A stretch of DNA of 64,000 nucleotides, taken from the NCBI GenBank assembly GCA_008632985.1, contig QPGO01000264.1:1-64000 (forward strand), in the 5' to 3' direction. Under the pieces are notes generated by a model. That model saw nothing but the letters and a program-made list of their open reading frames with translations. It was not told the origin of the DNA and did not search any database. Positions 31,036-64,000 of the stretch are shown here, one piece after another (the stretch's first letter is position 1; each line of letters opens with the position of its first letter). Source of the stretch: Psammoneis japonica. Taxonomy: Eukaryota. Both the position numbers and the translations under genes were made by a program.

Positions 31036-31039
31036 CAAG

Positions 31040-39212: not shown

Positions 39213-39459
39213 GACAGCGCTCAATGCAATGTCAACAAAAGTGACAATGAGACGTTGTCACACCCGCAGTTGACCATCAAGAGCAGCAGCATTTGCTTCA
39301 TCCATCTCTGCAAAGCACTCCACAACAAGCTCGATTCGGTTTGACGGGTGGGATGATCTGTCACCACCATTGTGCTGCCTTGGAAATGAAGCATGAGGGC
39401 ATGACAAAGAAAAAGGATCCACAACTCTCTAGACCCTCCGGTGGAGGAGTTGGATCCTG

Positions 39460-39685
39460 AATGCAGCAAATGCATTTGCATCGCCAAAAGACAAAGCAAG
39501 GTGGTTGGGTGGTGGATTCATTGCTGGGATGCCACGCACATGACAGAGAATGGAGAGAGAGTCAAAGTGTGCGCTGTTCTGTGTTCTGTTTCACTCTCTT
39601 CTTTCACTGATGTTTTCGTTCTGATGCCCTGCTGCTTGCCCGATGTGCACAGCACTCTGCAGCAGTCATTCGCCATGGCCCCTGT
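39460..39685 (+). repeat. Dispersed repeat, second copy at about 44295-44517
   Basis: AAAGACAAAGCAAGG(T/C)GGTTGGGTGGT...GAGAATGGAGAGAGAG...CCCTGCTGCTTGCCC shared; both copies lie downstream of a 56-bp array plus tail. Confidence 0.85.
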
Positions 39686-40280
39686 GTGGTGAACAATGGT
39701 GCATCATTTTGGGCATTGCCTGGAGCTGCTCATGATGGCGGGGCATTGGAAAATGGTTTTGATGAGCTTCACAACAGTTGCAAAGAACTGCTTGAGTTAC
39801 GAGCCTTTGAGAGACAGGTCTCCACTCCTTGATGCATCCCACAAGGCTCTGAGCTGCAGGAAAACTCGTGTGCTCTTGCTTGTTCACCGCTCAAGGATGT
39901 CTTTGACTGGAATTTTTTTGGGAGTTTTTGTCATTTCTTGCACTGGTGTTCATTTTTGTCCATGGCACCTGTTGTTGCATCACAAGACTGGCTTTTGCCA
40001 TCTCTCTGCAGTGGCAGAAGACAGGTCAACAGCGCAATTCGCAGACCTGCTCTTTTGCATTAAAGAGAATCACGAGCTTGTGCCACATTGTTTGGAGCTC
40101 AACATCCAATGTCCTGTGCACGACTTCAACTCAGATGGTCCACTGAGTGGCCACACAGCCCAGACAATGCAACTCCTCTTCTCGATTGGGTCCTTGGTTA
40201 GAATCTTGTTTCAACTTCCATCAGCATGAGTTGAACTCTTGAGTTGACAAAGTTGGCCAACCAAGAACCCGGAACACAGT

Positions 40281-41750: not shown

Positions 41751-42354
41751 TGGCCGACACTTCCGTGCTGTTTTCATCACACAAGATCTGAGAAAAAAGA
41801 TCATTGGAAGATGCACAGACACGGCGCAAGCTGGGCTTTGCTTTTCTGTTTGCTTGCTTGAACAAAACTTGAAAAGCTCTGTGTCAACAATGAGTCACCC
41901 AACTGATGAGTTGGACATTGCGAGAGCCACCAGAAGGAATCCCCAACAGCAATCCCTTCTCATTCCACTCACAGTTCCTTTGAACACCAAGTCATCACCA
42001 CAAGCTCTGGATCTTGCATGCCTGATCATTTTCTGGCATGCAATCCGCAATCTGCCATGCTGAGGACTCATCATGGCTCAGCACTGGGCACTGACTTGAG
42101 CACATCTTGGCCACAAATCACAGCCAATGTGCCCTTGCGGGAAGCGCTGTGCAGGTGCAATGGCCAGACATCACTCACTTCCATCAAAATGTCAAGCTGA
42201 GTGAGTTTCATCACATGTTCCATGTGTCTTCCCACAATTTCTGACTTAAATGTGCAGGATCTGGCACAAATTCCTTGAATCTTCCTGTTTGCGACGGCCA
42301 TCCCAACCCTGCCAGACTGTCGCACAAAACCAAGAATTCATTTTGAGCTGGTCA

Positions 42355-43530
42355 GAGCGTGTGTGTGCACATTTGTTTTCGTTTGTTGAGTTCATTGCAA
42401 TTTGTGTTCAGAGCACGTGTGCAAACATTCATTTTTGTCCATCAAATTCATTGCAATGTACATTGAGAGCACGGATGTGCACATTTGTTTTCGTTCATCG
42501 AATTCATTGCAATGTGTGCTTAGAGCATGCTCACAAACATTCAATTCCGTCCATCGAATTCATCGCAATGTGCGTTTGGAGTGCAAACACAAACATTTGT
42601 TTTCGTCCATCAAATTCTTTGCAGTGCATGTTTGGAGCATGGATGTGCACTTTTTTTTCGTTTGTCAAATTCATCATTTTTGTCAGTGCACTTTCTGCAT
42701 GGAATCTAAGCACATTGCCTTTCACATGATCCATGGGGGTGCAAGCACAATGCGGACAGCCATGAACAATGGAAAAGGGAAAAGGGCATTTGTCTTTTTA
42801 GACTGCCTGGAACATCATTGAAGTCATTGCAATGTGCATTCAGAGCATGCATGTAAACATGTGCTTTCATCTGTCAAATTCATTGCAATGTGCATTCAGA
42901 GAACAGACGTGCACATTTGTTTTTGTCTGTCAAATTCATTGCAACACACACTCAGAGCACAGGTGCAAACATGGATTTTCGTCTGTCGAATTCATTGCAA
43001 TGCACGTTTGGAGCACGTGTGCAGACATTTGTTTTTGTCTGTTGAATTCATGCACACATTAATTTTCATTTGTCAAATTCATCACAATGCACGTTCAGAG
43101 CAAGTGTGCAAACATTTGTTTTCATCCATCAAATTCATTGCAATGTGCACTGAGATCACTGATGTGCACATTTGTTTTCGTCTGTCAAATTCATCACAAT
43201 GAGCATTTAGAGCACGCACACAAACATGCATTTTCATCTGTCAAATTCACCACAATGTGCACTTGGAGCACGCATGCAAACATTGATTTTCGTCTGACAA
43301 ATTTGTTGCAACATGCGTTTGGAGTGCGTGTGCAAACATTTGTTTTCGTTTGTCGAATTCATCATTTTTGTCAGCACATTTTCTGCATGGAATCTAAGCA
43401 CATTGCCTTTCGCGCGATCCGTGGGAGTGCAAGTGCAATGTGGACAGCCATGAACAACGGAAAAGGGAAAAGGGCATTTCCTTTTTAGACTGCCTTGAAC
43501 ATCACTGCTGCTGCAATCATGTTGAGCTGG
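42355..43530 (+). repeat. Two more 56-bp satellite arrays, each with the same tail
   Basis: About 6 units 42355-42680 plus tail to about 42815; about 10 units 42820-43365 plus tail to about 43530. Confidence 0.92.
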
Positions 43531-43989
43531 AGTGCATCAATCTGCAGTTTGAGCACTTTGCCAAAAATGCCGCATGGCTTGCATTTGTGACTGCACAACA
43601 AAAGCACAAGACAACAATCAACTCACCAGTTTTCGCAGTCAACCATGCTTCCATTCACTGTCTGAAACTGCAGATTGTGGTCAATCAGAGTTGTTCACTG
43701 CACCAACCGGCGTCGTCATTGTTTGACAAAAGCCATTGAAAATGGGAGATGAGTGCACCATGGTGTGTTGCCCATTTTTTTGTTGCGGCGATTGTCTGCG
43801 TCTGGTGCATGGCTCCTTGCATCCCCGCATGCAGAAGGCACAGAGGTGCACAAGAAGGGAAGCACAGGGAATTGCCAACACACCAATTTGCTTTCATGGG
43901 CTGAGCATGCATGCAACGAGGTGGCATTTGCGGCAATTCCCCAGGAAATCATGATTCCCATGGAAGACAGGCTGGGTGGCATTTTTTTT

Positions 43990-44290
43990 TACATTGGGCC
44001 CGCAGAATTCTATGTGCGAGCTCCTCAGCACAAGAGTTTGGTTGATGGGATGGGTTCCAGCCCCAGGTGGGACTTTTTGTGACAACTGGCCCACAGAATT
44101 CTACGTGCGAGCTCTGTGGCAACATTGTGCAGTGATTAAAATGCAAATGATTGCCAACAGAAAAAGAGGCAATTTTGCAAATGCATCTCCTCCTCCACAC
44201 TTGAAGTGCATTGTTTGCATTGTGCCCGGGTGTGCACTCATGTTGTCATGAGTGCAGAAAATGAAAAGCCTTTGGCTTCGAAAAACATGC
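43990..44290 (+). mobile_element. Old, mutated partial copy of the 3789-4184 MITE family
   Basis: GGGTTCCAGCCCCAGGTGGGACTTTTTGTGACA...AGAATTCTACGTGCGAGCTC...GCCAACAGAAAAAGAGGCAATTTTGC...CATCTCCTCCTCCACACTTGAAGT...GAAAGCC/GAAAAGCCTTTGGCTTCG. Confidence 0.85.
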
Positions 44291-44770
44291 CTGAGTGCAG
44301 CACATGCATTTGTGTTGCCCAAAGACAAAGCAAGGCGGTTGGGTGGTAGATTTGTTGCTGGGATGCCGCACACATGATGGAGAATGGAGAGAGAGTTGAA
44401 GCATGCATTGTTCCATGCTCCACTTCAATCTCTTCTTTCACCAACATTTTCGTTCTGACACCCTGCTGCTTGCCCAACATGCGCAGTGCTCTCTGGCAGT
44501 CATTCACTGTGATCCCAATGGTTGTTGAGGGTCAACACTTTGACAGCTTGGTTTGGTGTCATCGGGCTGTGGCTGACCCTCGACTGCTGCATGCAGAACC
44601 CGCATCTTCCCATCACTTTTTGGAAGTTTGGTGCTGGCACCCAAGCAAAAAGAAAGCAATCTTCATTCCACTGCAGCAGCAACACTCCCTGCAATGAACG
44701 GCACTGAATGCAAGGTGAGAGGTGCTGCACTTTGCACAGTCCAAACTTGCTTCATCATTGTCGGGGAGGG

Positions 44771-46623
44771 TTTTTATGCCATGGTGTTGGAGCACATTTT
44801 AGAGTGGGAGGGAAGAGAGGAGGAGAAAAAAAGAAAGAAAAAGAAAGAAGAGAAAAGGAAAGAGAAAGAGGGAGAGAAGAGACTCTGCTTTTTCTTCCAG
44901 CAACAAAGGCACTCAAAAGCATTTGTTTTGTGGATGTCAGCATCACACTTCTAACCTCCATTTTAGAAGCTCTTTTGCTCAGGAGCTTGAGACTGTTTTG
45001 GATGTTTGTGGAAGCAGCTTTGGAGCTCAAAGTTCAGCACGTGTGTGGGGCTGCCAGAAAATCGTGTGTGCAATTTGTGCGGAGCCATGCGCACCAGAAT
45101 TGAGCAAAAAAGGCTTTCGTCACTTCCTTTCAGCCAATCAGAGCCCAGTCTGAGTAAAAGATGTTTCCCCTCAGCCAATCAGAAGTCATCATGTCTGCCA
45201 CACGTCAGTTTGAGCCTGGAGTGACCTTGCTTGTGCCAGTTGTTCAATTTTTTGTGTAAATTCATTTGCATCTGAAGACAAAGTTTAAACTCAGCATTGC
45301 TCTCATCACTTTCAAGAAGCAAACAGCAAACCATCACCATCATCATCTTCATTGTTTGGGTGTTGCTGCAATCTGGAATGCCTCCATTTCCAGTGGACTG
45401 AAGTGGAGGCATGATGTGTCATTGCAACAATGATTCAATGATGGCAATGGAGCTGTGGTGCATTGTTGTCTTTGATGAACAACACGTGGCCGATTGACAT
45501 GTTGCATGTTTTTTTTTTCTCTCCTTGTTTTCCCGTTGTGTGCTGTCACATTTTCTGAATTGTCTGTTGAACCTTTTTCTCTGCAGCACCCCAACAATTT
45601 CTTTTCAGCTCTTGCCAAAATGCCACATGTGTCCCAGGAAAGCACTTTTGGTGCTTCTTTGCTTCGAAATGGCAGACGATTTTGGCAGCATGTGATGCCG
45701 GCACGGTGGAGAGAGTGTTGCCAGCAACAACTTGCCTGATGAACCACAAGAGATCTCACGGATGATGCACATTCAAGCCACAGTCAATTGATGTGACTGA
45801 TGAAAGAAAGCATTTTGGAATCTTCTTGTGACCAGAGAATGGCAAGACAACTCGACCAAAGATGGTGTGGTTCTCTGTGTCCACATGTTTTCCCTGCAAC
45901 AGCAGTTTTTTGCTCATGCCACATCCTTGCAAGGAAGCAAAGATGGACATTGCACCCAGCCAGCGTGTTCCAGACAATGTTCAAAGTGATGGATTGCCAA
46001 GGTGAGGCTTGTTCTACAGCAAGTCAAAGTGAATTTCCGGTTTGGCCTCATTTGCTGCAGTTTTCTAAAATTCTTGGTGTGCTTGCAAACATGACTGGTG
46101 CACTCCAGGAAAAACCCACACACTGGGGTTCAAGCTCTCAAGCAAAAGATCCAGCAGCATGAACTGTGAGCCTTCAGCAATGCTTTTTCTCCCCCCGCTT
46201 TTGTCAACGTGGGAATCAGCATCATGTGCACCATTTCATCATGCAAATTTTTGCTGCATCATGGTCGCCACCAGCATGTCACAATGGAGGGAAGTTTTGT
46301 GTTTGCTTGGATCTGCTCTCTTCCATCCCACAGAACCCATGACGGCCACTCTGAAAATGTGGTCCACCCTTGTCACAATTTGGTTTGTTTTGAACAGTCT
46401 CCTCACTTGGTTTGTTTTTTCTAATTTTGTGGTGCATTGATCTCACCGCTGAAAGATTTGTTGCTGACGCAAGCATGAGAGGTTAATTTTGGAGCTTCTG
46501 ATTGGCTGAATCCATGCATTTTTTAACAACTGTGCAGTTTTTGCATGAGCCTCTCAAAGCAAATTCCACATGCATGAGTGTGAGCTCTCATTCAAAAGAT
46601 CCAGCAACATGTGTCATGAGCCC
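44771..46623 (-). mobile_element. Non-autonomous Dada-like element(s)
   Basis: 3'-type end at 44771 (TTTTTATGCCATGGTGTTGGAGCACATTTTAGA plus purine tract, homologous to 24570-24856); 5'-type ends at 46172 and 46623 (AAAAGATCCAGCA(A/G)CAT...TGAGCC). Confidence 0.65.
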
Positions 46624-47127
46624 AGACTGGTTTTTGTGCCATGTTGCTGGAGTGCATTTTAGACCAAGAGGGAAGAGAGAAGGAGAAAAAGGAAAGAAAA
46701 AGAAAGAAGGGAAAAGAAAAGAGAAAAAAGAGAAAAGAGACTCTGCTGTTTCCCGCTGCAACAAAAGCATTCAAAAATGCTTTGTTTTGTGGACACTGGC
46801 ATTCCATTTTCAAATTTTAGGTCAATTGTGGAGCTCAACCTGAGTCCACAATGTTTTTTCTACAAGAAATGCGCGTGTGCCTTTGCACCAGAGAATGTGT
46901 GGGGAACTGATTGAAAAACTGCATCACGCACATCCCCTCAGCCAATCAGAGCCAAGCATTTTTTAAAAATTGTGTCACACCTTCAATGGGGCTTGTCCTT
47001 TGGGATTCCTTGTTCCTTTTTTTGCCTCATGACCCTGACTCACATGGCTCCCAATGAACACACAAATTTTAATCCCAACCCACATTGGCGCCATTGGATG
47101 TTGAACATGCAAGTTAAGTTCAAATGT

Positions 47128-47433
47128 CAGTTTTTCATGTCACTAACTGCAGGCATTCAACACACATTTTTCATCCACATTTGAGATGTTCCATGTGTTT
47201 TTTGTGGTCCTGCATGACCTGAGAATCTCCCTCGTGAGAATCATCACAAAAACCAGGCCATGACAGCGGCAACAGGTGGCCAGTTTTTCACATCACTAAC
47301 TTCAGGCATTCAACACACGTTTTTTATCTACATTTAAGATGTTCCATGTTTTTTTTACAGTCCTGCACGAGCTGAGAATCTCCCTCATGAGAATCATCAC
47401 AAAAACCAGGCCATGACAGTGGCAACAGGCAGT
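47128..47433 (+). repeat. 153-bp tandem duplication
   Basis: 47128-47280 versus 47281-47433. Confidence 0.92.
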
Positions 47434-48624
47434 GTCAGATGTTGTCACCAATGCGGTTGCCACCAACATTCCCACTGCAGCACACCTGACATTTTGTTCT
47501 GATGAGTGCATCAATGAAAAGAGAGGTGAGGTTTTAAATCAAAAAATGGACACCAACTGCCATGCATGATTGTGCTGTCACTCAAGCCTGTTGTCTTCAC
47601 TGCTTTCATTGACATTTTTGTTCTTTCTCGACAGATTCAAGAGCACCCAGCCCACCCTTTTTGTGGCAGCCTACAATCACATGGAACACAAAGATTCTGT
47701 CACATTGAAGTTTGCAGAGGTGTCACTTGGTTTGGTTGCAGCGCACATGGCATTCACTGCTCATGAGCATGTCTTTGGCGAGCTTTTTCACTGCTGATTT
47801 TGTTGCCCATTTTGTGATGTTCATGTTCAGCCTCATCAACCATCAGCCAAATTTCTGTGTCAGACATGCTGTTGTTTGTTGGGAACCAAGTTGGATTTGT
47901 GGTCTTCCTTGATTTGGTGGAGAGGTGTTCTTGGCACTGAATGTGGCATCATTTTTGCTCCTTTCTTCCTGTCAATCAATCCATTTCAGGAAACCTGTCA
48001 CTCGATTTGGGTGCAACCTAAACCATGGTGAGTGCAGCATGTGAGCATGTCCATTGTGGCCTTTTGCTGTTTTTGCAGTTGGCCAAACATCTTGTTGCAC
48101 TTGTGTCCATTCTTGCCAACCTGTTGTTGCACCGCGTTTCTATGTCAGACAAGTTTTTGATTGATGGGGGAGCAAATGGGATCTGTGACATTCCTTGGTG
48201 TTTAGGAGAAATGTCACTTGATTCAATGGCGGTGTGTCACACAATCTGCATCAGGGTGAGTGCCACTCACGAGCCTGTCTGTCACTGCCGCATTTGCTGC
48301 TGATGTTGTTTGCTGTGGCATCTGTCTTGCAACGCTCACGTCCAGCCTTGTGAGCATGTTGACATGCCTGCAGACAGTGAGTTGGATCAGTGGCATGTCC
48401 TGAGCAGCTGCCATTGCACCACAGTTTTTTGTCTTCTTGACTTGAGTGCAGCAACCACTTGTGGTGCATCTCTCTTGAGTTCCCATCATTCTTGAATTTT
48501 GTTCATTGCTGACTTGCATTTCTCCCACTGTTTGTCACGTCAATGAGCGCTGTTGGACTTGAGAGTGACAATGCTGCATTGCATGGCATGTGCATTGCCA
48601 ATCTGTCTCTCTTGTGCTGGTTTT

Positions 48625-50849
48625 AAGTGCGTGGAGTCCCGCTGGCATTGATGCACTTGCATTTCTCTCTTTCCACCCTGGGATGTTGGCCTTTGCAAAC
48701 AAGGGCCTTTTCCCCTTGGAATTCAATGCAGTGCATGCAATGGTGCCCACTTTGTTTTGTGGTGGGTGCTGTGCGGGATGTGTCAGCATCCCTCCGACAA
48801 TCACTCGCTTCTCAGTGTGACGAGCTTGCTGCAATGTGATGTCAAGAGCGTGGGATGCCAATGGTGTGGGCCAATGCCTGCATGGGGATGGTTGAGATGG
48901 GTTTTCAATTGTGGCTGCACCTGCCCATGGTGCCTTGTTGTTGTCGTCAAGGATTTCTGTTTGGACATTGCTTGAGTTTTCGTTGGTTGTGTTGGGTGGC
49001 ATGGCAAGATTCAAGTTTGCGAGTGCTTCAAAAACATTTCTTGCACCTTGAACCGCATCTTTGGTTCTTTGTCCACTCAAGAAAGAATTTTGCTGCATTG
49101 CAAGGGGCCTCCAGGCAAAACCTGGAGAATGTTCTCATCTCATCCAAGCCATGACAAGGCAAGAATGGAAGCTTTGCTCCCATGGCTGCTGCAAGACATG
49201 CTTGGTCCCTTGTGAGTCTCACTTTTCTCTCCTTGCCCAGCTTGCCCTTGTCACTCTTAGTCCAAATGTCTGCTGGTGTTGCTTCAACGGCAAGTGCCAG
49301 CTCCTGATTGTGCAATGGTGCGGCATCAAAGCTCTCTGGTGTGTCTTTGCAATCACTTGCATTTCTCCATTGAGGGTGCAAGATGACACCATGGTTGTCT
49401 TGAACAAGGAGTTGCAACCGGTCCACCAGCCACGTGTTGAAATGGCCAAAAACGGGGAAGCCCTGTTGCCATCATTCTGAGCTCAAATGATTGCAATGAT
49501 GCCTGCATTCACTCAGAAGAGTGTCCAACATTTCTGTGCCACAGCACCACATCCCAAATGTTGTTGCCATCTGCTTGTGAATTGACTCCACATCACTTGT
49601 TCCCCGGTTGCAGTGCAGCAGATGCACTCCATGTTCATTCTTCATTGGCTCTCCCAACTTGTTGAAGAAAAGCATGTAAAATTGCACTCCTTGAGGGTTG
49701 GACATGTGTCCTGTGAGCATGTCTCAGAGCACGCCATTTGCTTTCTTCCAATTTGCCTTGTTGAAAAGGGGTTTGCCAGTCCAGCTGTCTGTGTTTCTTC
49801 TGGCAGAGGCACAGTTGGATCTCCTGCAGTTGCATTGGTGATGGTTTTCTCATTTGATGCATTCCCGGCAGCACCTCTTGGCATGCAACTCAACAAGCAA
49901 TTTGGAAAGCACCTCTGGCTGCAATCCTTTGGCACGCAGCAAGCACATGAGGTCAAGCATGGATTCTTTGTCGACCCCGGCTTTGTGAGTCAGGAAGGTG
50001 GGAAACTCATCACTGCATCCAAAAGGCAACATTTCATTGGAGGTTGGGTTGTGTCCCACGAAGGTGGGCTGCAGAATGTCATCACCCTGTTTCCATTTTG
50101 CCTTGCATTCATGGCAACAGCACATCATGGCACAGTGGCACAAATTAAGGGCAACTGCTCATTGTGCATGATGATTTGTTTGATGCCCATGCAGGCCAAC
50201 ACGGTCATTCATCTTGCACTGGGGACAACACGGAGCAGCCTCCAGACCCCACCTGAATTGTGGAAGCAACACAAGCACATCTGGGTGGTGCGACCTTTCT
50301 CCACAGTCAACGCCAAGCTTCTTGCAAATCTTGTGTGCACTGATGGCAGGAATCATGCAGTCACATTTCTTCAGATGCTCCAAAAGCCACCTTGTGTTCA
50401 GAGCACCGCCAAAGTTTCCAGTCGTCTCTGCCCTCAGTCAACCTTGTGTGGCTCTCAGGTGTTGAGTCATGACCCCCCCCAGGTCCGCTTGTGTCATTTT
50501 CTTGACCATCACTTGACGCTTCATTGAAGGGTTTGTCATCAGTGTGACCCAGCTCTGCCACGAATTGAGGCAAATCAAGCTCCACTGAAGCAACAAAATC
50601 CTCATTTTCTTCTTGCTCCTGTTGTTGGCAATCCTGTCCATTTTCCTCCTGCTTCTCCTCCTGTTCATTTGTGGTGCCTGAAGTTCTCACAGTGCCACTG
50701 TTCAGAGCCGTCTTCATGGCTTCATGCCCCTGTTGTGCCTTCTTGGCTGCCATCTTGCTGTTCCTTTCCTCTTTCTCTTCCAAAGTCAAAGAGCGCCACT
50801 TCTTTCTTGGGGTTTTGTCCCTTGACCCTTTCTTTCTGCCTGGCGGCAT
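48625..50849 (-). pseudogene. Dada-like transposase remnant
   Basis: MPPGRKKGSRDKTPRKK, PCCPQCK, CHECK, FPTFLTHKAGVD, GHMSNPQGVQFY, LLHCNRGTSDVESIHKQM, DRLQLLVQDNHGV, RLTRDQACLAAAMG; the D1/D2/DxxH region is missing. Confidence 0.75.
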
Positions 50850-51699
50850 GTGATTGTTCAAGATGTCAACAATGTGGTGTGCATGGCCAATGATGTGTTG
50901 TTGTGTTGTCGGCCAGTGTCTCGTCTCCGCACTTGGTTTGCTTTTTGATTTTATGATGCATTGATCTCACCTCTGAAAGATTCATTGCTGACGCAAGCGT
51001 GAGTGCTTGACTTTGGAGCTTCTGATTGGCTGAATCCATGCATTTTTAAAAAACCGCGCAGTTTTTGCATGAGCCTCTCAGTGCAAATTCTGTGTGTGCG
51101 AGTGCAAGCTCTCGTTTAAAAGATCCAGCAACGTGTGCCATGAGCAGGTGACCATGAGCCTGGCTGGAGCAGACACTGCTTGGCTGGCTCCAGATTGACG
51201 CCTTGGGTGAGGACAGAGGATCAGATGGTGCATTGACTTCTTTGGGCTACGATGAATTCAATTTCAGCGCACTGTGATCAACCGACTGGATGACCATCAT
51301 TTCTCAACCACAGCAGACAGCAGATGTTGTTGACAATGCTGTGACGGTCAATGTCATGTGTCACAAGCTCAAGAGAATTGTCTTGATGACCTGTTGAAAG
51401 GAACAGTGTGGGGACAACAAGAACAAGAAAGGATTCAATGCCGTCAAGCCCAGTTCAGTCAAGCTTCTTTGCCTGGAGAACAAATCGAGTGCCAATGTCA
51501 ACTTTGTCACATGCCACTGGGAAGAGTTGTGCACCCACGTGACAGACCTCATCCAGTTGACATGCCCCAAGAAAGGGCTGCGTGCCAATGAGCTTGACTT
51601 CAAGAAGCAAACATGTGGCAACATGAAATGTGCTTGTTGCGACAAAGACTTGAGAACATGCCATTCCTGCTGCTTGATCAACACTGTGTGATTTGACAA

Positions 51700-51910
51700 C
51701 ACATTGAAAACTTGTTGGAAGAACAAGCCAAGTGCAGGCATGCACAAGCTTGCATGCATGTTGACAACATGTTGGAAGAAGGAGTCGAGCGCATGCATGC
51801 ACAAGCTCACATGCACGTTGACAACATGTTGGAAGAACAAGCCAAACGCAGACGTGTGCAAACTCGAAGGCATGTCAATGACATGCCAGCAGAACAAGTC
51901 AAGCGATGCA
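51700..51910 (+). repeat. 57-bp (19-codon) degenerate coding-type repeat
   Basis: GTTGGAAGAA at 51714, 51771, 51828; translates MLEEQAKCRHAQACMHVDN-like units. Confidence 0.75.
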
Positions 51911-53189
51911 ATGATCGAGATCTGATGCATTAACTTGCTCACTGAATTGCAGTGCAATGTGCTTTCCATGTCAGTTTGTTTCTCTTTCACAACTGGAGCT
52001 GTCCATTTGTTTCACAAACATTGTGCATGGATGAGCAGGGCTGCATGCTTGGTGGCAGTGACTGGCAGAAAGGATCCATCAACCGCTCCTCTGCTTGACT
52101 TTCACAACAACACAAGATCTGAAGATTGTTTGCCATTCACTTGATGCTGTCACAACAAATTTGATGAGTTGTGCTGCACTGCACTTCTTCAATTGCTTCA
52201 TCATTTGAAGACAAGCAGAGAACACAGCCTTTCCATCATTTTGACCAAGACCAAGCATTTCTTCAATGGCTTCAATGATCAAAATGGCAGCAACCTGGAT
52301 CTCTCCTTCACTTGATTCATCATTGCTGAAAACAGTCCAGCAATGGCGGACTTCGTTCATGCCCTGGGCCACCCCTTCCTCGACAATGTGCTCTTGCAGA
52401 CAACCTTCAAACACCGCACAGATGACGGCATGACAAGGATCTTCATCATCCTTTTGAGTTCATGTTTTCTGATTGCAAAAAGCTTTGAGACAAATTTGCC
52501 ACTTGATTTTCTTTTGTGGAACAATGCAAGACATCCAATGCATCAGATTGATCAACCACTGCTGGAATCTGAGCCATCCGAATCTGAGTTGACATTCCAA
52601 TTGCTGTGTTTCTAATGTGCAGACAGATGTCAGGTGTTGCTTGATCAGCTGCATTGAAAAACATGCTGAAGACATTTTCCGTGAAGTCTGGATTGTTGCC
52701 TGGCCAATCAAACTCCATTTCCAGCTGCGCGCATTTCAACAAATGAAAGTTTGTGCCACATTGTGCAATTTGCCTGCAGTTCTCTTGTGCCTCAGTGGCA
52801 TTTTCTGCATCTGCAGCATTGCGCAATCAAACTGCCAATCTTTTAATGTCATCAAAAATGAACTCGAGCCCACAAATGGTTCCATGACAGATCATTTGTG
52901 GTCACCCAATCAATGTCGTCCATGGTGTTGTTGATTGTGTGAACATTGTGAGCATCAAGTGTTCTCATTCTGCGGCAGAGTTGATGCAAAATTCAGGTTG
53001 TACAATGGCCCACAGTTTTGAAGATTTGCATCAAAAAATCTGGAACAAACAATGACCTTAACACTTTGATGTTTGAGTGAAGATTTTTTGTTCAAAAATT
53101 TAAAATGAATGAACTGGTCATTGCGATTCAAAATTGACAGTGTCTCAAATGTTCAAATTTTAAAATTTTTGAGAAAATTGATGATCAAG

Positions 53190-53420
53190 TGAAATCAGGA
53201 GCATTGGATGTAGTTTTGCCGTGCTCTGCAAGTGAGGCACTGGCACACACGCTGACGTGTCTCATCGGAGGGAGGCAACAAGGGGCAGCAAAGCAATCGT
53301 CGGTCACTTGTTGTTGCCATTGTGTGATGACAAGCCTCTGGAAGTGTCTTGTTGATTGTTGCATCACTGCACCACTGGGACTGTGAGTGGCTGAGCCCAT
53401 CTGGCAGCTGGATTTACTCG
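53190..53420 (+). repeat. 5' LTR (shared portion, 231 bp)
   Basis: TGAAATCAGG...GATTTACTCG aligns without gaps to 59601-59831; true right end uncertain. Confidence 0.92.
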
Positions 53421-53710
53421 CTTTGTCAGAGCCAAGTCACAACTCAAGTTTGGTGCATTGAAATGTGATGAACAACAATTTGTTGATGGTCGTGTCATTG
53501 TGGCATGGTTGCAATGATGATTGTCAACCGACCGAAGGGTGCACAGTGTTTGTTGTCACCTGGCATCAGTGCATGCACAAGCAGTGAGGAGACAAGGCCA
53601 GTCTCCATGCTTCTAGAGGATGCGTGTCATCTTCAACACGTTGAGGCACATTTGTTTGTAACATGCACCTTCTAACATGTCTTGCTTGATTCCGTGTCAC
53701 AGGCATTGCC

Positions 53711-55135
53711 ATGATGGCTGCTCCTCCGGATCCAATTGAGACTGCTCTTGATTGGATTGGATTTGACAATCCAGATTGTCGAGCCTTGCTCATGGCGGAT
53801 TTTGCAACTTTTTGAGATTTTGAAGACCTCAAGGAGAGTGACATTGACACACTCGCAGCTTCTCATGCAAGGAGGATGGTTGCTGAAGGGCGCATTCACT
53901 TTGGACTAGCTTGCACTCGCCATCTCAAAGCTCTGATCCATTGGGTCCAGGATTTTTACCATGTGAGTGAGATCCCCACTCTTGGGGGATTAGATGAAGC
54001 AGTCTTCCGTTCGCAGCTGCAAATGGCACTCAATTGGGCTGAGATTCGCTCTCAGCAGAAAGACACGGCAGACTCTCTTGGCAAAGAAGCGTCACCTGGA
54101 ATGTTGGAGAATGAGAAAGGATGGGTGAAGTGGGGCACAGGCCCAACGAACATGCCAGGCATTGTGCTCGGAGTGTCCGGCGTGCCACTTGTTCATTGCA
54201 TTCGTTCAAATGATGACCCTGAACCTGATGGTCACAACACTTTTGTCCAGAAGTGTGTTGCTTGTGCGCCACTCCACTGTCCTGCTTTTGAAGCAGATGC
54301 TCGCACTGTTCATCTGTTGATCAAGTCCCTTGCTGTGGGGATGCCAAGTGAGCAATGGTTGAAAGACCACAAGAGTGAGCAGAATGGTCGTGTGGACTGT
54401 CAAGCTCTTTGCGATCATTGCCAGGGAGAGGGCAACTTGTCGCGCCGCATTTCTGAGGCTGAGAATTTAGAGAAAACACTCCATTGCAAGAGTGAACGCG
54501 CTGTGGCTTTTGAGTTGTTTGTCAACAAGCTCCAAGAAATGTTTGACATTTTTGAGGAGAATGATGAGCCCAAGACTGAAGCCCAGAAACTGCGCATCCT
54601 GTTTGAGAAGACGCAGCATCAACAGCTTCAGAGCATTGTTGAGACCTTGAAGGCACAAAATGAGTTCGGAGGAGGCATCTCATTTACCACGGCGGCCAAT
54701 CACCTGGCGGCTAAGGCAGCTGCTCTTCTAGAGACAGTCATGCATCGCTGTGCAATCGCTTCAGTCACCTCTGGAGGAGGGAAAGAAGGCAACATCCACA
54801 ATGCTGATGGAACCATTGACACGGGTTTCCACAAGAATTGGCATCAGCTGAGCAAGGAGGACAAGCAGAAGGTTTGCAACGAGCGTGCACGTCCAGGTGT
54901 CAACAAGAAACCTGGGAATCCAAAATGTTGCGCTGCATCTGTCAAGTTGCTTGAGAAGAAGAATCTGAAGCTGTCGTTGCAGCTTGAGGAAGTGAGCCGT
55001 AAAATCTTCGCTCTGAATGCAAGCACCAACTCTGATTCTGGTGAAGGCGATTCAGGAGCTGACGGGAAAGGCAAGGACAATGCCGGAGATGCTTTTGGAG
55101 GTTGCAGTGAGAAACGTGGAGCTGGACGTCAATGA
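53711..55135 (+). pseudogene. gag: Copia Gag, degenerate
   Basis: LDWIGF...FEDLKESDI, LKALIHWVQDF, GVSGVPLVHCIR, FEADARTVH, HCKSERAVAFE; one internal TGA. Confidence 0.85.
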
Positions 55136-55174
55136 CTCCCAAGCTGGACTCTGCTCTGCAGCATTGTCAACCTT

Positions 55175-58100
55175 GTGTTGTGGCCACTGCACTGGGGCAG
55201 GGGTCAGTCATGTTCATCATGCAAGGATTCAACGTGCCAAGACAGTCAGCGCATCTACGAGATCACTGCCTCAACGAGGTGTGTCTCTGCCACTCGATCC
55301 AATTCACGAAACACTCACATCCAAGACATGAATCAGGTAAAGCATGGGTGTCTTGAATTGGATTTGCATGCTGATGCTGCTGTTTTTGGTCAAAACTTTA
55401 CCCTCTCAGGTCACTCTGGACGAGAATGCGACGTGTCACCCTGCAATGAGGGATGCGAGTCCATCAAGAGTGTCCCGACAGCTTTGGCGGCCATGGCGTG
55501 GATGTCAACAGCTGTGGGAGCAACACACATCCTGGTTTTTCATGAGGGCACGTGGATGGCTGATTCCATGGAGCACTTGCTGTTGAACCCCAATCAGTTG
55601 CGACACTTTGGTGCATGAGTTCAGGGTGACCCCTGTTCTGAGTCGCCTCTGCATGTTCTCACGGAGGACAAGTCATTTGTGTTACCTCTGGAGGTGATGG
55701 GGACCAGCATCATTGTGGCAACCCGGACTCCTGCAGATCAGGAGCTCCAGGAGTGCCCGCACATCCAGATGACCTCCCAACAACCTTGGGATCCACATGC
55801 CGTCAAGTTTAAACAGCCCAGAACTTGACGATCTGTGGAGGAGGAAATGGAGTTGATTCGGTCTGTGGCAAGCATTCAAACCAACATGACGCATGAATTC
55901 AGTGAAGATCCTGCTTGTGGCAACCCTCAGTCTGGGGACCACCATGACAGGAGATTCATTTATGGTGTTGACCAAGTTCAATCAAGATTGGTGGCAGCAG
56001 TTAGAGCAGACTCAGATGCACAGATTTCTGCCATCGAGACAATTGGTGAGGAACCTGAGGACGTGGCTCATCCAAAGACTTTCATGTCAAAGGAGAGACA
56101 CAGCAACATTGCTGCAGCTGACTTGAGTGAGCGTTGGTGCATTGGATTGAAACAAGCAGCTGCTGCACTGAAGAAGACCACTCAGAGGCTAGCACAGTCA
56201 GCGTTGATGCTGTTGGGCAGGCGTCACCAAGCCAATCGGATGTTCACAAAACCAAGATTACGTGGTGAATGGGCAACCGACACTTGTGGACGGAAAAGTG
56301 GTTTCGTTGGAGGGCAATTGATGCGCCCAGATCTTCATGAACAAGAAGCACTTTGCTGCGATCCATCCCATGGACAAGAAGAGTAAAGCTGGTGAAGCTC
56401 TCAAGACATTCTGCCAAGAATTTAGTGTTCCGGAGAAGCTTGCAATGGATGGTTCTAAGGAACAGACCAAACCTGGCACTGAGTTCATGAAGACAGTCCA
56501 AAAGGAGGGCAATGATCATCATGTCATTGAGCCTGACAGGCACAATCAGAATCCTGTGGAAGGAGTCGTCCGTGAGGTTCGACGCAAGTGGTTTTGCATC
56601 ATGGTGAAGAAGCAAGTGCCGAGGAGACTTTGGGATCACGGACTTGTGTGGAGCTGCAAGACAATGTCTAGGACATTTCTGAGGGCTCATCACTTGGATG
56701 CTGGAGTGCCACTTGAAGATGTTCTCGGCAAGACTCTCTGAATGTCTTGACTTTGGGTTCTGTGACTGGGTCTGGTGCAGGGAGAATGCGGGACTTGGAG
56801 ACGAGAAACCAGGCAGATGGCTTGGTGTCTCTCACAGAACGGGGAGTCTCATGTCGCACCACATTTTGACAGCAAACGGCAGCGTCATCTCAAGGACATC
56901 TGTTCATTGGGTCACCAATTTAGAGGCCGCTGCACAAGGCAAAGTTCAACAGTTTTGATGAGGAAATCAAGCGCTGCATGAAGGAACAAGATTTTCCGGA
57001 GGACAAGGAATGCAAGATCAGTCCCAAAGACTGGAAGGACTGCCTTGGTTATGATGATGAATTCCTCGACGAATGCGACCGCGTCATGTCTTCGGAGGAG
57101 GCATTGGATGAGGATGACAACAAGAAAGACAAGGAAGCCTCACCGGAGGCAGCCGACTGGGGATGTCTCAATGTGGAAGTTGCTCTTCCTAGAGATGACA
57201 ATGGCCCCAAGTTTGCACGTGTTGCCAAGAGGTTGAGGGATGCCAATGGCATCCCAATTGGTGCAGCCAACAACAATCCCATCCTGGACACTCGAATGCA
57301 TCAGCTGGAGTGCCCTGATGGTCGCGCTGCTGCACCATCTGCCAACTCCATTGCCATGAACATGCATGCACAGATTGATGAGGATGGGAATCGACATGTT
57401 CCATTTGACGAGATTGTAGATCATCGCACAAATGGGGACATTCCAGATGCCACATTCTTTGAAACTGAGCAAGGCGTGCAGAAGCGGTGCAAGACCACGA
57501 AGGGATGGGAGCTTTTGTTTCAATGGAAGGATGGCAGCATGACTTGGATTGACCTCAAGGATGCTGAGGAAGGCTTCCCGGCACAGGTTGCTGAGTTTGC
57601 TGTTCAGCGCAAGATCTCACAGGAGTCAGCGTTTGCTTGGTGGGTTCCTCACGTTGTCAGGACACGCATGCGTTCCACAGCAAAAGTCAAGTCGAAGCAT
57701 TGGTTGTGAACCCACAAGTTCGGCATGCGGATTCTGAAGAGTGTCAAGGAGGCATTAGAACTTGATCATGCAAATGGCAACACCCTGTGGTGGGACGCTG
57801 TTTGCATGGAGATGAAGAACGTTTGAGTTGTGTTCGAGAAGTTTGATGGTGAACCAGAAGACATGGCGCCTGGCTTCCAGGAGGTGAAGTGCCACGTGAC
57901 ATTCGACATCAAGATGGGAGAAAACTTCTGCCACAAATGTCGAATGGTGGCTGGGGGACACACTGCTGAGGCTCCCACCACAATCACCTGCTCCTCTGTT
58001 GTCTCTAGGGACTCAGTGAGGATCGCGCTTGCGCTTGCCGTGCTCAATGACTCACAAGTGTTTGCATGTGACATCCAGAATGCCTGCCTCACTGCCCCTT

Positions 58101-59413
58101 GCAGGGAGAAGATTTGGACCCATGCAGGTTCAGAGTTTGGCGAGGATGAAGGTTGCATCATGATTGCAGTCAGGGGACTTTACAGGTTGAAGAGTTCCGG
58201 AGCAGCACTCAGAGCCTTCCCAGTGGAGAAGCTTTGTGATTTGGGGTGCAAGCCAAGCAAGGCCGATCCTGATGTGTGGATGCGACCTGCGGTGAAACCT
58301 GATGGATTCGAGCACTACGAACGTGTTTTAGTTTGTGTTGATGATGTGCTGTCGATCAGCCATGAACCCCTGAAAACAATGGATGGCATCAGGTCCAAGT
58401 TCAAGCTCAAGGGTGACAAGGCAGCTGAACCCGATTCTTGCCTCGGGGCTGCTCTTTCCAAGATGGATTTGGCGGATGGCACCACTTGTTGGACCATGTC
58501 GGCGGAGAAGCATTGCAAGGCCACTGTCCAGAATGTTGAAGACAAGCTTGGCAAGGAAGGCAAGCAATCACCTGGCAAGGCAACTGCCCCTTTGAGCAGT
58601 GGACACAAGCCTGAGTTGGACACAATGGGCGAGTTAGATGCCGCGGGACTTGACTGTCACCAAGAGCTGATTGGCGTGTTGGTTTGGATTGTGGAACTTG
58701 GTAGAGTGGACATTCATCTGGAAGTTTTGTTGATGTCTGCCCACCTTGCTCTGCCCTGACTTGGTCATCTGGAACAGGTGCTGCATGTCTTTGCATGTCT
58801 CAAACATGTTCCGAGGCACCGAGTGGCATTTGACCCAACTCATCCCATGATTGATGAGCGGCGATTTGTCAAGCATGACTGGCATGACTTCTGCCGTGAC
58901 GCGGAGGAGGCCATTCCGTCTAATGCACCACCAGCTCGAGGTGACACAGTGTCAACACATTGTTTTGTGGATGACAACCATGCTGGCAATGTTGCCAATC
59001 GTCGCAGCCATGCAGGTGTTTTGACATTCCTTTGTCAGGCACCCATTGTCTGGCACTCAAAACGTCAGAATGCTGTGGAGGCAAGCACCTTTGGAGCTGA
59101 GATCGTTGCCCTCATGAATGCCATTGAGCTCATTGAAGGGCTGCGTTGCAAGCTGCGAATGTTTGGGGTTCCGATTGAAGGTCCTACAAATGTCTTCTGT
59201 GACAATGAGGCCGTGTGCAAGAACTGCTCTGTTCCTGAGTCTACACTCAAGAAGAAGCATCATTCCATTGCGCACCACCACAACCACAAAGCTGTTGCTG
59301 CGGGGACTGTTGGGATTGCAAAGGAAGACACTGAAACCAATCTTTCGGATTTGTTCACAAAAGTCATGGCATCAGTGAGAAGGAACTTTCTGTTGGACAA
59401 GTTCACGCATTGA
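55175..59413 (+). pseudogene. pol: Copia Pol (protease, integrase, RT, RNase H), degenerate
   Basis: ELDLHADAAVFG; PEKLAMDGSKEQ...EPDRHNQNPVEG; FDIKMGENF...RMVAGGH, CDIQNACL, LVCVDDVL; VWHSKRQN, FCDNEAVCKN, NLSDLFTK; several TGA stops and frameshifts. Confidence 0.92.
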
Positions 59414-59600
59414 GTTTGAGTTTGCTGTTTGAGCGGCGGTGACTTTCTTCCCTGGTGAGGGTTTGCACCATGCTCTGGCAGTGGTGATTTTTCCCCAGTG
59501 AGGGTTTGCACCATGCATCATTGTCACGTTTGTTGTCGATTCAGCTTAGAGTCGAGTTGTCCCTGTCAAGACTTGCTGGGAACATTTCGAGGGGACCGAG

Positions 59601-59831
59601 TGAAATCAGGAGCATTGGATGTAGCTTTGCCATGCTCTGCAAGTGAGGCGCTGGCACGCACGCTGATGTGTCTCATCGGAGGGAGGCAACGAGGGGCAGC
59701 GAAGCAATCGTCGGTCACTTGTTGTTGCCGTTGTGCAATGACAAGCCTCTAGAAGCATCTTGTTGATTGTTGCATCACTGTGCCACTGAGACTGTGAGCA
59801 GCTGAGCCTGTCTGGCAGCTGGATTTACTCG
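59601..59831 (+). repeat. 3' LTR
   Basis: Matches 53190-53420 and follows the PPT. Confidence 0.92.
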
Positions 59832-59839
59832 TGATTGAA

Positions 59840-61289
59840 TGGTCCATCAACTGTTGATCAACTGTCTGACAACCGCCAAATCACAAAGGCAGACATTGAC
59901 AGCAAACACAAGCTTTGCAATGAGCATGGTCAGATGCACGTGATGCCATGTGGCAATCTCTTTCTGTCAAAGACAATGGAGAGAGAACTTGTGCCCTTCT
60001 TTGTTCAACTCTTTGATCTGTGTGTGTTGTGTGATTGGCAAACTGCACTTGAATGCATTGTGAAACTGCCCCTTCTCTCTTCCTCAAAATTGATTCAAGA
60101 GTGCGGCATCCCATGTCTGGCTTGACATGTCCACATTGTGCATGCATGTTGGGCGCAATTGCTGGGCAATTTGTGATTGAAATTGTCAAAGCTGTTCCTG
60201 CGGTTGCTTCCATTTGCAGCAAATCTGGTTTTTCTCCCATTGACTTTACGTTGTTGCATGGACATCATTGTCCTGCATCTGTTTTGCTCAACAGGATGAT
60301 TGAAGAGGGGTTCATGTCTGAGAATGGTCCTGACATGAGGCAAGGAGTTGTCTCTAAACTCAGCTTGACAAGTGGTGCTTGCATGTTTTTGCACGCAAAT
60401 GCATTGAGCACATTCTGTCAAAATTGCTCTGTGGAGATTGACTTGGCATGTGATCTTGTGTGGACAGGAGAAACAACTCTTGATCATCTGTTTGAATTTG
60501 GTTTCAGAGATCATGACAACCGTGATTGGACAAAGAGATCCACCAACTTTTGTGGTGGAAGTCATCATCACAAGGATGTCAATGACCCTTTCTTTCAAAT
60601 GACATTGTCCATGCTGTTGACTTCTTTCTGTCATGGGACAACGGAGCTTGCAAGAGCCAGAAACTCTTTCTCACCATCACCACCAGACGGCACCACCTTT
60701 CAACCACTGCATGCATTGGCGGGAATGGAGAACCCACCTCTTGCCATTGCGTTTGTTTCTACATGGCTTGCCACAATTTTGCATGAAAACCTGCGATGCT
60801 TTGGGAAATGTGCCAGCTCACATTGCGTGCTCAGTTTCACCCCCAAGAAAACAGTGTTTTGAGCCATTTTGTGTTTGCAATCTTTGGAACAGAAATGACA
60901 ATGTTTGCAACAATGACAACAACTTGTGACATTGTGGCCATTGCAAGCATCCCATTGAAAGCTTGTTGAAGACCAACAAATCATTGGCATCATCCCCAAA
61001 TGAGAACGGCATGTTTCCTGTGCAGATGGAAATCAATTCTGGATGAAATTGGCATCAGGGCATTGATTTGCCATGCAAAAGCAACCCCAATGCACTCAAC
61101 ATTGTTGATCCATTGACAAAGCTGCCACTTGCATTTCATGCAGCTGACGAAAAGGGCAGATCACCTGTTGCTGTCATTTGCAAATTGATGTGGAACAATC
61201 TGAGTGCCCTTGTTGGAGGACAAGAATCATCTGCTGAAGAAGCAATTTGTCAACCAATCAAGCACACTGGGGTTTCTCCCCAGTGTTGA
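59840..61289 (+). pseudogene. Ankyrin-like repeat protein of diatom type, degenerate
   Basis: RHPMSGLTCPHCAC; C-terminal GMFPVQMEINSG*NWHQG...PNALNIVDPLTKLPLAFHAA...VICKLM resembles the terminal ankyrin-like module of diatom proteins. Confidence 0.45.
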
Positions 61290-62399
61290 CAAGCTTTTGT
61301 GCAAAGCTTTGATTTGACAACACAATCTAACTTCAGGTTGGACCATGCTTTTTGAAGGTCAATGTGATGAAGACTGAGTGTTGCAGCTTGGATTCAATGA
61401 GGAAGGCCAGATGAAATTGACCAAAAGGTCCTGGCAGATTTGGTCAAAGATGTTGATTCAGTGACTCTTGCTGCAATTGGATTTGGTCTGATTGCCTTTG
61501 ACTTTTTCATCCTGGTGAGTGCTGGAGATGGAGGAATGTCAGGGCTTGTGACACAAACCATCAACGCTGCAAGCTAAAACAAGCAAATGAATCAGGGTGA
61601 TGATCAAGACAAACTTGCACGTGCCAGCAAACCAAGGAGGTTTGACCATGATGATGTCTCACCTGGATCAAGAAGCTTCTTTGATGACCTTGATGACATG
61701 ACATGCAACACCCTGTGAAACGATCAAAGCTGACCCCAGATGCCATTGAACGAGTGCATCGCATCAGCTGCAAATCATTGCCACATGTCCTTCACGCCAT
61801 TTGATCTCTTGACAATGGAGTGTTTGAAAGCAGCTGTGGCCACTCATTGCTGAAGTGAGAATCTCATGCTGGCACAACAAAATTGTGCAGTCTCACGTGG
61901 CAAACATTCTGTTTGCAATGTCTGGACTGCACAAGGCATTGCTCAGGCTCTGCCACACAAGCTGGAAAGGTCTGATCAACCCATCTGCTCAGTTGAACAC
62001 TTCCACTCAACTCAAAGATGCAATGCAAAGTGAGAGGGACACCACATGGGAGGCACCAGTGCAGTCTGTCCAGCACCAATTTGAGTTTGTCATTTGCAGC
62101 AGGCACCAGTGTGGTTTTGAAATTTTTGTTGCCCAGCCAGGTTGAAGACATCTTCTTCCATCTCATTTGACAATCTTGAGACTGCCATGGCCAGGTTGAA
62201 GACATCTTCCATCTCACTTGGCAGTCTCAAGACTGCCACAGTCTGCAACAAGAAACCTCCGTTTTCTCACCATGGTGAGCAAGCTGCAAAGGGAAGAAGA
62301 TGACAGGTGTTGCACAGAGATTTACCTTTTTCTGCACCAACCTCATTCTTGCAATGCTTGCACGAGGCTCAAGGCTCTCCTTTGAAGGAAAGGAAAAGG

Positions 62400-63935
62400 A
62401 AAGACCCATTTCTTTGTCTTGTCATGGAAGCAAACTGGCTCAAATCTTCTTTGTGGGATCTTGCGCCATCATCCAGAAATTGCAATGCACAACGAGCTGT
62501 TCAACCCAACTGACATCTTTGTGCATTGTCCATCAATCACGAGGCATGTTGGTGAAGACCCAAATGACAAGGGCTTGCAATGGACTCACCTTGCTCGGGA
62601 TCTCTGCCCAGATGGAATTCTGGAGCACATTTGGACCGGCAAGTGTGCCAGCAGCAAAGAAATCAAGGAAGGAGCAAGGCTGTAGAACTCAAGTCATTTC
62701 CCAACAACTGGCCTGGCAAGAATGAAGACATCTGGAGAACGTCAATCTTGGAAAACCACTGCATCAAAAAGATCATGCTGTGCCAAGAAGATGAGCTTGC
62801 AGTCTTCATTTTGATGCCACGTGCAGAAAAGAATGGACCCTGCATGAGACTCTCAAGCACCCCAAAGGTCTCAAGGTTCACACAGACCCAGCGTGCTTTC
62901 AGGCATTTGTCAACAACTGCAGAGACACCTTTCAATGCAAGCACAAGTCTCCAACAGAAAAACGTGATGCTTTCCAAATCAATTGTGAGCAGATTGTAGA
63001 AGAAGAGCACTTTGATGAAAATGTCTGGCCTCTTCTCTGGCACTTCTTAGAAGTTGATGACAGTGCAACACCAAAGCGGCTCAAGGAGATTGTGGGGTAA
63101 GCTGATGATGACAAGAACCCATCAGAAATCATTTCAAGCTGTGAAGAACTCAAGTTCTGCTTCCGACATGCCAACATGATGCCTTTTCTACATGGGCATC
63201 AAGCACGATGTCTTCTGCATTCAACAAATCTGCTGGCAAGGTGAAGGCTGCTGGAGATCATCTGCTCAAGAAGGCAAGCTTCACAGTCGTTGGACAATTC
63301 TCCTCCCCATTTGCTCTAGAAGGACTCAAAGCAACACCAACAGGGTTTTGCACCGGGATGCGATCATCACCAACTTCAAAGCCAACCGGCTTTTCGAACT
63401 TGTGAGTTCCTCTCAACACTCAGTGGTGGACACTTTTGCAGAAGGTGAATGTTGGGTGCACCTTGAAAACTTTGCCTCTTCCCTGAAGGAAACTTGTTCT
63501 TCCCAGAAGCTCAAAGACACAGTGTGCGTCATTGGAATTGACGTGGACAACAAGATCTTAATTTCAAATCATGCAAAACATCAGATCAGCGACGTGCTTT
63601 GTCCATGCAAGGTTGTTTTTGTTTCCATCTCTGCCATCATGTGCTGTCATGTCTGCAGGATTTGGAGCCACCTGGTGAGCAACACTGGTCAACATGGCAA
63701 CTTTGTTGTGCTTTTTGGCGATGACATTGTTTTGGAAACAAAAGGATGGCAAGACAGAGTTGAGGCACGTTTCCACAAGATTGCAGTTCAAACAGGATTG
63801 CCCTTTGGTGCTGCGCACATCACTCTAAATGACAAGTCATTTCCCAGCTTTCCCACCTTTCCTGCTGTCCATCGATGGTGCATCAACCACTTTGACCACC
63901 TGTTGCTGAAGCAGCTCATGAGTCAGGGAGCAGAG
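62400..63935 (+). pseudogene. Sulfotransferase (Stf0-like) followed by a GT-A glycosyltransferase-like domain, degenerate
   Basis: KQTGSNLLCGILRHHPEIAMHNELFNP, KAVELKSF, KKIML; then CVIGIDVD, FVVLFGDDIVLETKGW, GLPFGAAHITLNDKSFPSFPTFPAVHRW; stops and frameshifts. Confidence 0.65.
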
Positions 63936-64000
63936 GTGCACAAATCGTCTGTTGTTGTTCGCACACGTGCATTCGCACACTCAGCGCGTGCACGAACGAC

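Follow-up and report, generated by a model that had tools for sequence, protein, structure and literature searches.

What process can change two copies of one sequence almost only at two kinds of dinucleotide is the question raised by a dead Ty1/copia retrotransposon of 6,646 bp in the diatom Psammoneis japonica, located at 53186-59831 of a 64,000-nucleotide stretch (GenBank assembly GCA_008632985.1, contig QPGO01000264.1, positions 1 to 64,000, forward strand; hereafter the window). Its two long terminal repeats (LTRs) differ mainly at CG and at former TA steps, and we observe, in this element and its relatives, that TA has been turned into TG or CA after insertion, independently in each copy, up to boundaries that depend on the flanking DNA.

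The preliminary description of this locus reported LTRs of 231 bp with 20 differences, all transitions and without indels, divided into 7 CG versus CA/TG, 5 TG/CA doublets, 1 TA versus TG, and 2 others. A gapless comparison at offset 6411 recovers all 20 differences in the same classes, while the true LTR length is 235 bp (Table 1), the corrected ends adding an eighth CG difference at 53187. The pair total is 21/235, all transitions, with 5 doublets alongside 8 differences of CG type, 1 of TA type, and 2 in the background. Differences are found at 8/13 CG-class dinucleotides and 6/8 visible TA-class dinucleotides versus 2/193 other sites (1.0%, against 8.9% overall). Since 51% of random single transitions fall in the CG-type or TA-type class anyway, it is the doublets that carry most of the signal: five were reached in 0/200,000 sets of 21 random transitions (maximum, 4), and the probability of two or fewer background changes among 21 random transitions is 0.00016. 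With only 2/193 background sites differing, the proposals that the differences arose in place, that the element is young, and that LTR dating overestimates its age all hold, and naive dating is off by about ninefold.

The direction of change can be read from the polyprotein. Based on an alignment of 62 full-length outside homologues, in which columns conserved in ≥85% were used, the window element has Cys or His codons at 21/24 outgroup-conserved Tyr positions and keeps 442/515 other conserved residues. Across 17 copies, conserved Tyr is replaced by Cys or His at 294/383 positions, through the codons TGC, CAC, CAT, and TGT, with Leu, Ile, and Val changes obeying the same rule (CCA, TCA, ACA, ATG, and GCA). 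Most of the conserved tyrosines are gone from every copy examined, a loss that would be inactivating. The LTRs give the same direction, as 62 of 78 doublets in 29 sibling elements of four families lie at columns where a sibling has TA and none has CG (3 have both, 13 have neither, and none has CG only). The change is thus from TA to TG or CA, and the outcome that the preliminary description had named as fatal to its reading, doublets that all trace to CG without loss of TpA, is contradicted by both the tyrosine replacements and the sibling columns. Its suggestion that family members would reveal the origin of each doublet works directly for three of the five in the window (53345, 53388, and 53398), where related LTRs have TA, TG, or CA but never CG.

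To place this pair among others, 61 stretches were surveyed, of which 12 had no LTR pair and 9 were set aside as partial or nested pairs or as repeats other than LTRs; 40 pairs remained. Over 7,991 columns these 40 pairs show 257 single TA changes (124 TA/CA and 133 TA/TG), 97 doublets, 88 CG-type differences, 40 other transitions, and 25 transversions, with no TA/CG difference. Flanks were analyzed for 37 pairs, the other three having no definable ends. Twenty of the 37 are one-sided, meaning that one LTR lost at least 5 TA kept by the other, with 192 versus 5 losses (192/197), and in 19 of these 20 the spared LTR faces the TA-richer flank, the exception having two rich flanks. TA-rich LTRs make up 21/22 of those beside a TA-rich flank versus 4/52 of those beside a TA-poor flank (P = 2e-13). 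An LTR is either nearly fully TA-erased or spared, as set by its flank, and all 37 interiors are erased, with an observed/expected ratio (o/e) for TA of 0.07 to 0.25. This includes the elements L096 and L105, in which both LTRs face rich flanks and are 98-99% identical. The effect on TA that the preliminary description ascribed to a strongly elevated context-specific rate is real, yet it behaves as a regional on/off state and not as a steady rate. Both flanks of the window element are TA-poor (TA o/e, 0.12 and 0.00), which fits the erasure of both its LTRs, and hence the doublets.

The protection conferred by a rich flank fades with distance. TA is kept at 146/158 copy-sites in the first 100 bp (43/45 and 103/113), at about half at 200-300 bp, and at background level by 400-500 bp, and beside a poor flank there is no gradient of TA retention. 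CG loss follows the same division, with 10/253 beside TA-rich flanks versus 89/557 beside TA-poor flanks (P = 2e-7). In the 5-kb flanks of ten elements, the long frames found in TA-rich stretches have a Tyr content of 2-5%, and the transition from these stretches to TA-poor blocks, most of which are CG-poor too, is abrupt. About half of the elements L031-L119 sit where an erased block meets gene-type DNA.

With respect to sequence context, the fraction of TA kept is 0.00-0.10 where both strands read TAY, Y being a pyrimidine (ATAT, ATAC/GTAT, and GTAC), versus 0.33-0.48 where neither does (CTAG, CTAA/TTAG, and TTAA), levels that are biased by the choice of variable columns. Where one strand only reads TAY, that strand changed 1038 times versus 603 times for the TAR strand (R, purine), and neither strand is favored in palindromic contexts (567 versus 555). 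The same preference is visible in what remains, as RTAY accounts for 0/44 of the TAs left in the window element versus 392/1,249 in gene-type flanks. AA is not a target, since AA changed to AG at 45/11,766 copy-sites (3.8 per 1000), compared with 34/12,527 (2.7 per 1000) for GA. Strand-coordinated bursts within LTRs were considered as well and found no support (no clustering, P = 0.44). One LTR in the census, the 3' LTR of L101 (G000:C84), is strongly strand biased, with 16 TA to TG versus 2 TA to CA changes.

Several observations date the change to after insertion. The target duplications of L035 and L104 show TA versus CA mismatches, and the choice between TG and CA agrees at only 0.47-0.72 of sites between sibling copies (26 copies), which together indicate that parents were still TA at most sites and that copies changed independently once inserted. 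At L095 a contig spans across the element site, so that an empty allele exists and the insertion is on one homologue only, and the interior of this hemizygous insertion is already erased (TA o/e, 0.19). A single contig whose depth corresponds to two alleles covers the TA-poor flank of L095 without any difference, and 1 difference is present in the flank on the gene side, indicating that the TA-poor flank is older than the insertion and that the gene-side flank escaped invasion. At L095, the only locus examined for it, no spread of the change from the element into neighboring DNA was seen. No unedited source copy was found among the 106 of 1221 candidates scored, an outside query with normal Tyr content ranking the same eroded copies first, with at most 65% identity among the top matches.

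Per base, TA loss proceeded at 68-235 times background, which is a lower bound because most sites are saturated (75-86% of TA lost), and CG loss at 15-29 times background. This excess of CG to TG/CA in transposons is a separate, slower component, consistent with ordinary decay of methylated cytosine, and in the interior of L096 the two are far apart (TA o/e, 0.21; CG o/e, 0.98). LTR dating is in this way broken twice: the divergence of the window element is about ninefold too high, and the identity of an LTR pair varies with the DNA that each end adjoins, reflecting position as much as age, as in L096, where 99% identical LTRs flank an already erased interior. The main text of a recent preprint on the dating of diatom transposons (10.1101/2025.10.24.684338) contains no occurrence of "TpA," "dinucleotide," or "RIP."

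That the underlying process is a regional, symmetric, post-insertion loss of TpA we hold with high confidence; that adenine is deaminated directly within it is a reading we favor with considerably less assurance. In our best explanation, which we consider somewhat better than an even bet, TA is changed to TG or CA in place and in sharply bounded regions, the likely agent being an adenine deaminase of the host whose substrate is silenced chromatin, probably methylated at CG. Such an enzyme would act over many cell divisions and spare DNA beside gene-type sequence, and the inosine formed from adenine would be read as G and fixed when the DNA is replicated or repaired. Fixation on one strand removes the TA step, which would account for the absence of TA sites that go on to CG, and two erased LTRs that each pick TG or CA at random would convert about half of the old TA sites into doublets. 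The lower CG loss in those LTRs that are spared suggests that the target is a methylated domain, and the region would be silenced chromatin, because diatom genomes have CG-methylated transposon islands and CG decay follows the same edges; the CG losses themselves would then be ordinary 5-methylcytosine deamination. In line with this, a preprint on Bigelowiella natans proposes adenine deamination for the same substitution (10.64898/2026.01.13.699255), and an engineered TadA variant shows a YAY > YAR hierarchy, the same order as here (PMC12528748).

A number of points weigh against direct deamination by a chromatin-guided enzyme. The known natural deaminases of the TadA-type fold need a single-stranded substrate, yet the changes show no strand clustering (P = 0.44; one outlier, L101, with 2 versus 16). 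A-to-G and T-to-C changes at TA are indistinguishable by sequence, methylation is judged here by a proxy, CG loss only, and the thresholds for a "rich" flank and a one-sided pair were fixed once the data had been viewed. Of the five doublets in the window, two (53325 and 53370) are not alignable to relatives and have no assigned origin, because no close sibling of the element was present among the scored candidates (best internal identity, 74-77%; LTR identity, ~60%). The deaminase families are not expanded (9 PF00383 and 5 PF14437 matches in the genome), a chromatin-reading domain was found in 0/8 frames scanned, and no enzyme was identified. There was no convincing mutator among the small deaminases, in a search that did not cover ADAR/ADAT1, MT-A70, TET/JBP, or Y-family polymerases, and nothing marks the bacterial-type TadA homologue at G000:C38, or the deaminase fused to a 2-oxoglutarate dioxygenase at G000:C79, as a mutator. 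Finally, TadA-type editors also edit CA (PMC12528748), whereas changes at CA show no excess in the present data (2-3 per 1000 copy-sites).

The main rival retains the regional, in-place process and places the chemistry on a modified base: in silenced DNA, TpA steps would carry methylated A or modified T, which subsequently deaminates or mispairs. We give it a minority share of probability, on the order of one chance among several. It fits every positional result equally well, and a base-marking enzyme would go well with the strict dinucleotide specificity and with the symmetry on a palindromic step. A reading frame that joins a guanine-deaminase-like domain to a thymine-dioxygenase-like 2-oxoglutarate oxygenase does exist in this genome (L125:313-1785; G000:C79), but the substrates of its best relatives of solved structure are free bases or small molecules, and the fusion is probably a base salvage enzyme. 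Less probable by a clear step is error-prone gap filling by a polymerase-eta-like enzyme during the repair of T:G mismatches left by methylcytosine decay, with nearby A:T pairs being mutated. It would require no new enzyme and account for the co-localization of TA and CG loss; polymerase eta, however, mutates AA as well as TA, and AA to AG stays near the GA level while most TA is gone, and TA loss far exceeds CG loss, as in the interior of L096, so that this reading is already under strain.

Editing before insertion, in RNA or during reverse transcription by an ADAR- or APOBEC-like activity, has some parallels, as one-sided LTR editing occurs in retroviral editing and ADAR favors a 5' U, as stated in the B. 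natans preprint (10.64898/2026.01.13.699255). This is largely refuted by the flank rule, under which either LTR may be spared, and by the changes in target duplications, which were never in RNA; the equality of the two strands and the erasure of large blocks beyond these elements speak against it too, and its probability is very small. Smaller still is that of CpG decay as the cause of all differences, with CG to TG in one LTR and CG to CA in the other producing each doublet. From the 8/13 CG-class sites that differ, we estimate that at most about 1 of the 5 window doublets could come from CG, and as a sole cause CpG decay is refuted by the absence of sibling doublets at CG-only columns (0/78), by the replacement of conserved Tyr with Cys/His, and by a TA o/e of 0.11 in the element versus 0.60 in gene-type flanks. 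An artefact of base calling or assembly is just as hard to credit. Contigs of run X1, of 2.4 and 3.2 kb, span 51012-53408 and 59296-62495 with 0 differing letters, which takes in the 3' LTR completely and nearly the whole 5' LTR; X1 may itself be the run behind the assembly, and no library type is recorded for it. Contigs of X1 show TG/CA doublets between sibling copies as well, and the same Tyr erosion is seen in ENA, JGI, and Logan assemblies.

The substitution is the same as that of B. natans, an unrelated alga and so far the only precedent found. Both systems change TpA to TpG/CpA on either strand in foreign or silent regions; in B. natans, low-TpA coding sequences are enriched for transposon domains, and the enzyme is likewise not identified (10.64898/2026.01.13.699255). 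Both-strand change was found here as well, and host genes are spared, with Tyr-normal frames in TA-rich flanks next to erased elements. The rhizarian data concern two viral regions with partial depletion (Rho, 0.45) and mutation-accumulation lines, whereas in the diatom retrotransposons and much repeat DNA are affected to near-saturation (o/e, 0.02-0.25) with a TAY preference, boundaries cut inside elements, gene-facing LTRs are spared, and CG loss is co-localized. Activity in B. natans is ongoing, intermittent, and ~1000 times background, compared with the historical ratio of 68-235, a lower bound, here. TadA-fold genes are present in the diatom but look ordinary. New in the present data are the flank rule at census level, the protection distance, the test of copy independence, the empty-allele check, and Tyr-free proteins from outside.

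The process resembles repeat-induced point mutation (RIP) of ascomycetes in effect, as both inactivate transposons in place by dense, dinucleotide-specific transitions, and it departs from RIP in direction and, within the limits of the present tests, in not being triggered by homology. RIP changes C to T and creates TpA, the step that is destroyed here, and changes within one LTR here mix both strands. RIP is triggered by duplication, whereas LTRs, the most repeated part of the element, are spared here where they face gene-type DNA, and silicon-transporter copies 99% alike, which may be alleles, keep a TA o/e of 0.45; both argue against pure homology sensing. A related and more tentative proposal, to which we would give somewhat less than an even chance, is that diatoms, and probably other microbial eukaryotes, possess a defense that is RIP in reverse: a natural TAY adenine deaminase, guided by silenced chromatin and not by homology and stopping about two nucleosomes short of gene-type DNA, would strip transposons of their tyrosines. 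It would belong to the same system as in Bigelowiella, and the tyrosine-free copia proteins of other datasets suggest that this system is widespread. For CG methylation by DNMT5, the work by Hoguin et al. (PMC9998398) describes isolated methylated transposon islands in an otherwise unmethylated diatom genome; such islands would give CG loss and sharp blocks as seen here and would explain only C to T at CG. RIP is a premeiotic process that depends on RID/DNMT4. The diatom genome has 27 C5-methylase matches. Some C5-methyltransferase copies (L193, L194, L195, and L202; G000:C301, C297, and C28) are themselves TA-erased and nearly Tyr-free, with intact copies elsewhere.

Outside this genome, close relatives look normal, with TA erasure in 0/27 metagenome loci (o/e, 0.53-1.06) and Tyr erosion in 0/62 full-length homologues. 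Among 149 scorable library representatives, however, nine have Cys/His at 58-92% of conserved Tyr positions, while 138 have <20%. These nine stem from ENA, JGI, and Logan assemblies and have 44-58% identity to the best of the copies fetched from the P. japonica genome; three of them, compared with the whole genome, reach 44-53% best identity among scored candidates. They suggest that the process occurs beyond the P. japonica genome, likely in other organisms. Copia proteins with Tyr replaced by Cys/His include P0314, P0269, P0188, P0232, P0235, P0247, P0266, P0292, P0213, and P0172, of which P0314 is a 1,377-aa polyprotein without tyrosine whose cluster siblings differ by Cys/His swaps. No report of TpA loss in diatoms was found in the literature searched, most subscription journals being outside its coverage. 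If our reading is true, targeted TpA hypermutation would now be known from two lineages, and this would be the first in which it saturates transposons genome-wide, pointing to a new kind of adenine-editing or base-marking activity on DNA that is of interest for genome defense and base editing. Elements with one spared and one erased LTR carry their own internal control in the search for the chromatin mark that permits the mutation.

The anatomy of the window element is summarized in Table 1. Its Ty1/copia membership follows from the LTR pair with target-site duplication and from an RVT_2 match, and homologues carry PF07727; no integrase Pfam match was obtained in the broken pol pieces, and the element aligns with 539/552 columns conserved in outside polyproteins. 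In the genome, which measures 91 Mb and has 24 silicon-transporter matches, as fits a diatom host, the C-terminal pol piece is matched at least 152 times. The primer-binding-site-like motif, presumably a match to initiator tRNA, begins with six bases whose TA step reads TA in 8, TG in 20, CA in 8, and otherwise in 1 of 37 elements.

Table 1. Coordinates of the retrotransposon and its surroundings in the window
Feature	Position	Strand	Basis or remark
TA-erased, CG-depleted block around the element	26001..64000	.	TA o/e 0.02-0.12 per 2 kb
Left target-site duplication, TGAT	53182..53185	.	Same letters at 59832-59835
5' LTR, 235 bp	53186..53420	+	Starts CA versus CG in 3' LTR; 2 TA left
Five TG/CA doublet sites	53325, 53345, 53370, 53388, 53398	.	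Gapless LTR comparison
Primer-binding-site-like motif	53421..53436	+	Directly after 5' LTR; its TA step is TG here
Reading frame of the gag region (putative gag, by position), 439 aa stop to stop	53816..55135	+	No Pfam match
Pol region, interrupted by stops and frame changes	55136..59413	+	Reading frames, Tyr columns
Copia-type reverse transcriptase piece	57827..58759	+	Pfam RVT_2, E 1.4e-8
C-terminal pol piece (putative RNase H, by position)	58760..59413	+	At most 71% identity to RVT_2-bearing polyproteins elsewhere
Purine-rich tract ahead of 3' LTR	59583..59596	+	Common to related elements
3' LTR, 235 bp, CG...CG termini	59597..59831	+	3 TA left
Right target-site duplication, TGAT	59832..59835	.	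Same letters at 53182-53185

Compared with the CoDi Ty1/copia elements of diatoms, as described by Maumus et al. (PMC2806351), the window element has a similar size (5.2-8.1 kb in CoDi), short LTRs, and a copia-type reverse transcriptase. Its CG...CG termini are unusual in that set, where TG/CA is missing in just 3/26 families, and its LTR identity of 91% lies below the CoDi range of 94-100%. Most copia families in L031-L119 have CG...CG termini and 4-bp target duplications. The 5' LTR holds 6/8 CG losses of the pair, all six of which are CG to CA, a one-strand run in small numbers.

The whole window is TA-poor (TA o/e, 0.11, versus 0.60 in gene-type flanks elsewhere) except for two islands. 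The island at 4601-8000 carries P-loop NTPase-like frames (4912-6006 and 6007-6918) and a 231-bp tandem duplicate (5295/5526) that differs by 1 doublet, 2 TA changes, and 1 CG change and looks like early, light editing. The second, at 24401-26000, has abrupt edges and is without a long frame. Two repeat pairs, 39456-39682/44290-44516 and 46418-46621/50942-51145, lie ~4.5-4.8 kb apart with 14 and 5 TG/CA doublets, respectively, and are possibly older LTR pairs. There are 56-bp tandem arrays at 38513-39148 and 42310-43408, and GCTCAAAT-rich repeats at 18768-21279 inside a recent duplication that is ~99% identical. The single-copy depth of run X1 is ~30-35 at 48000-64000, versus 52-61 for the flanks of L095, without sign of a second allele, so that the window contig may be present on one homologue only.

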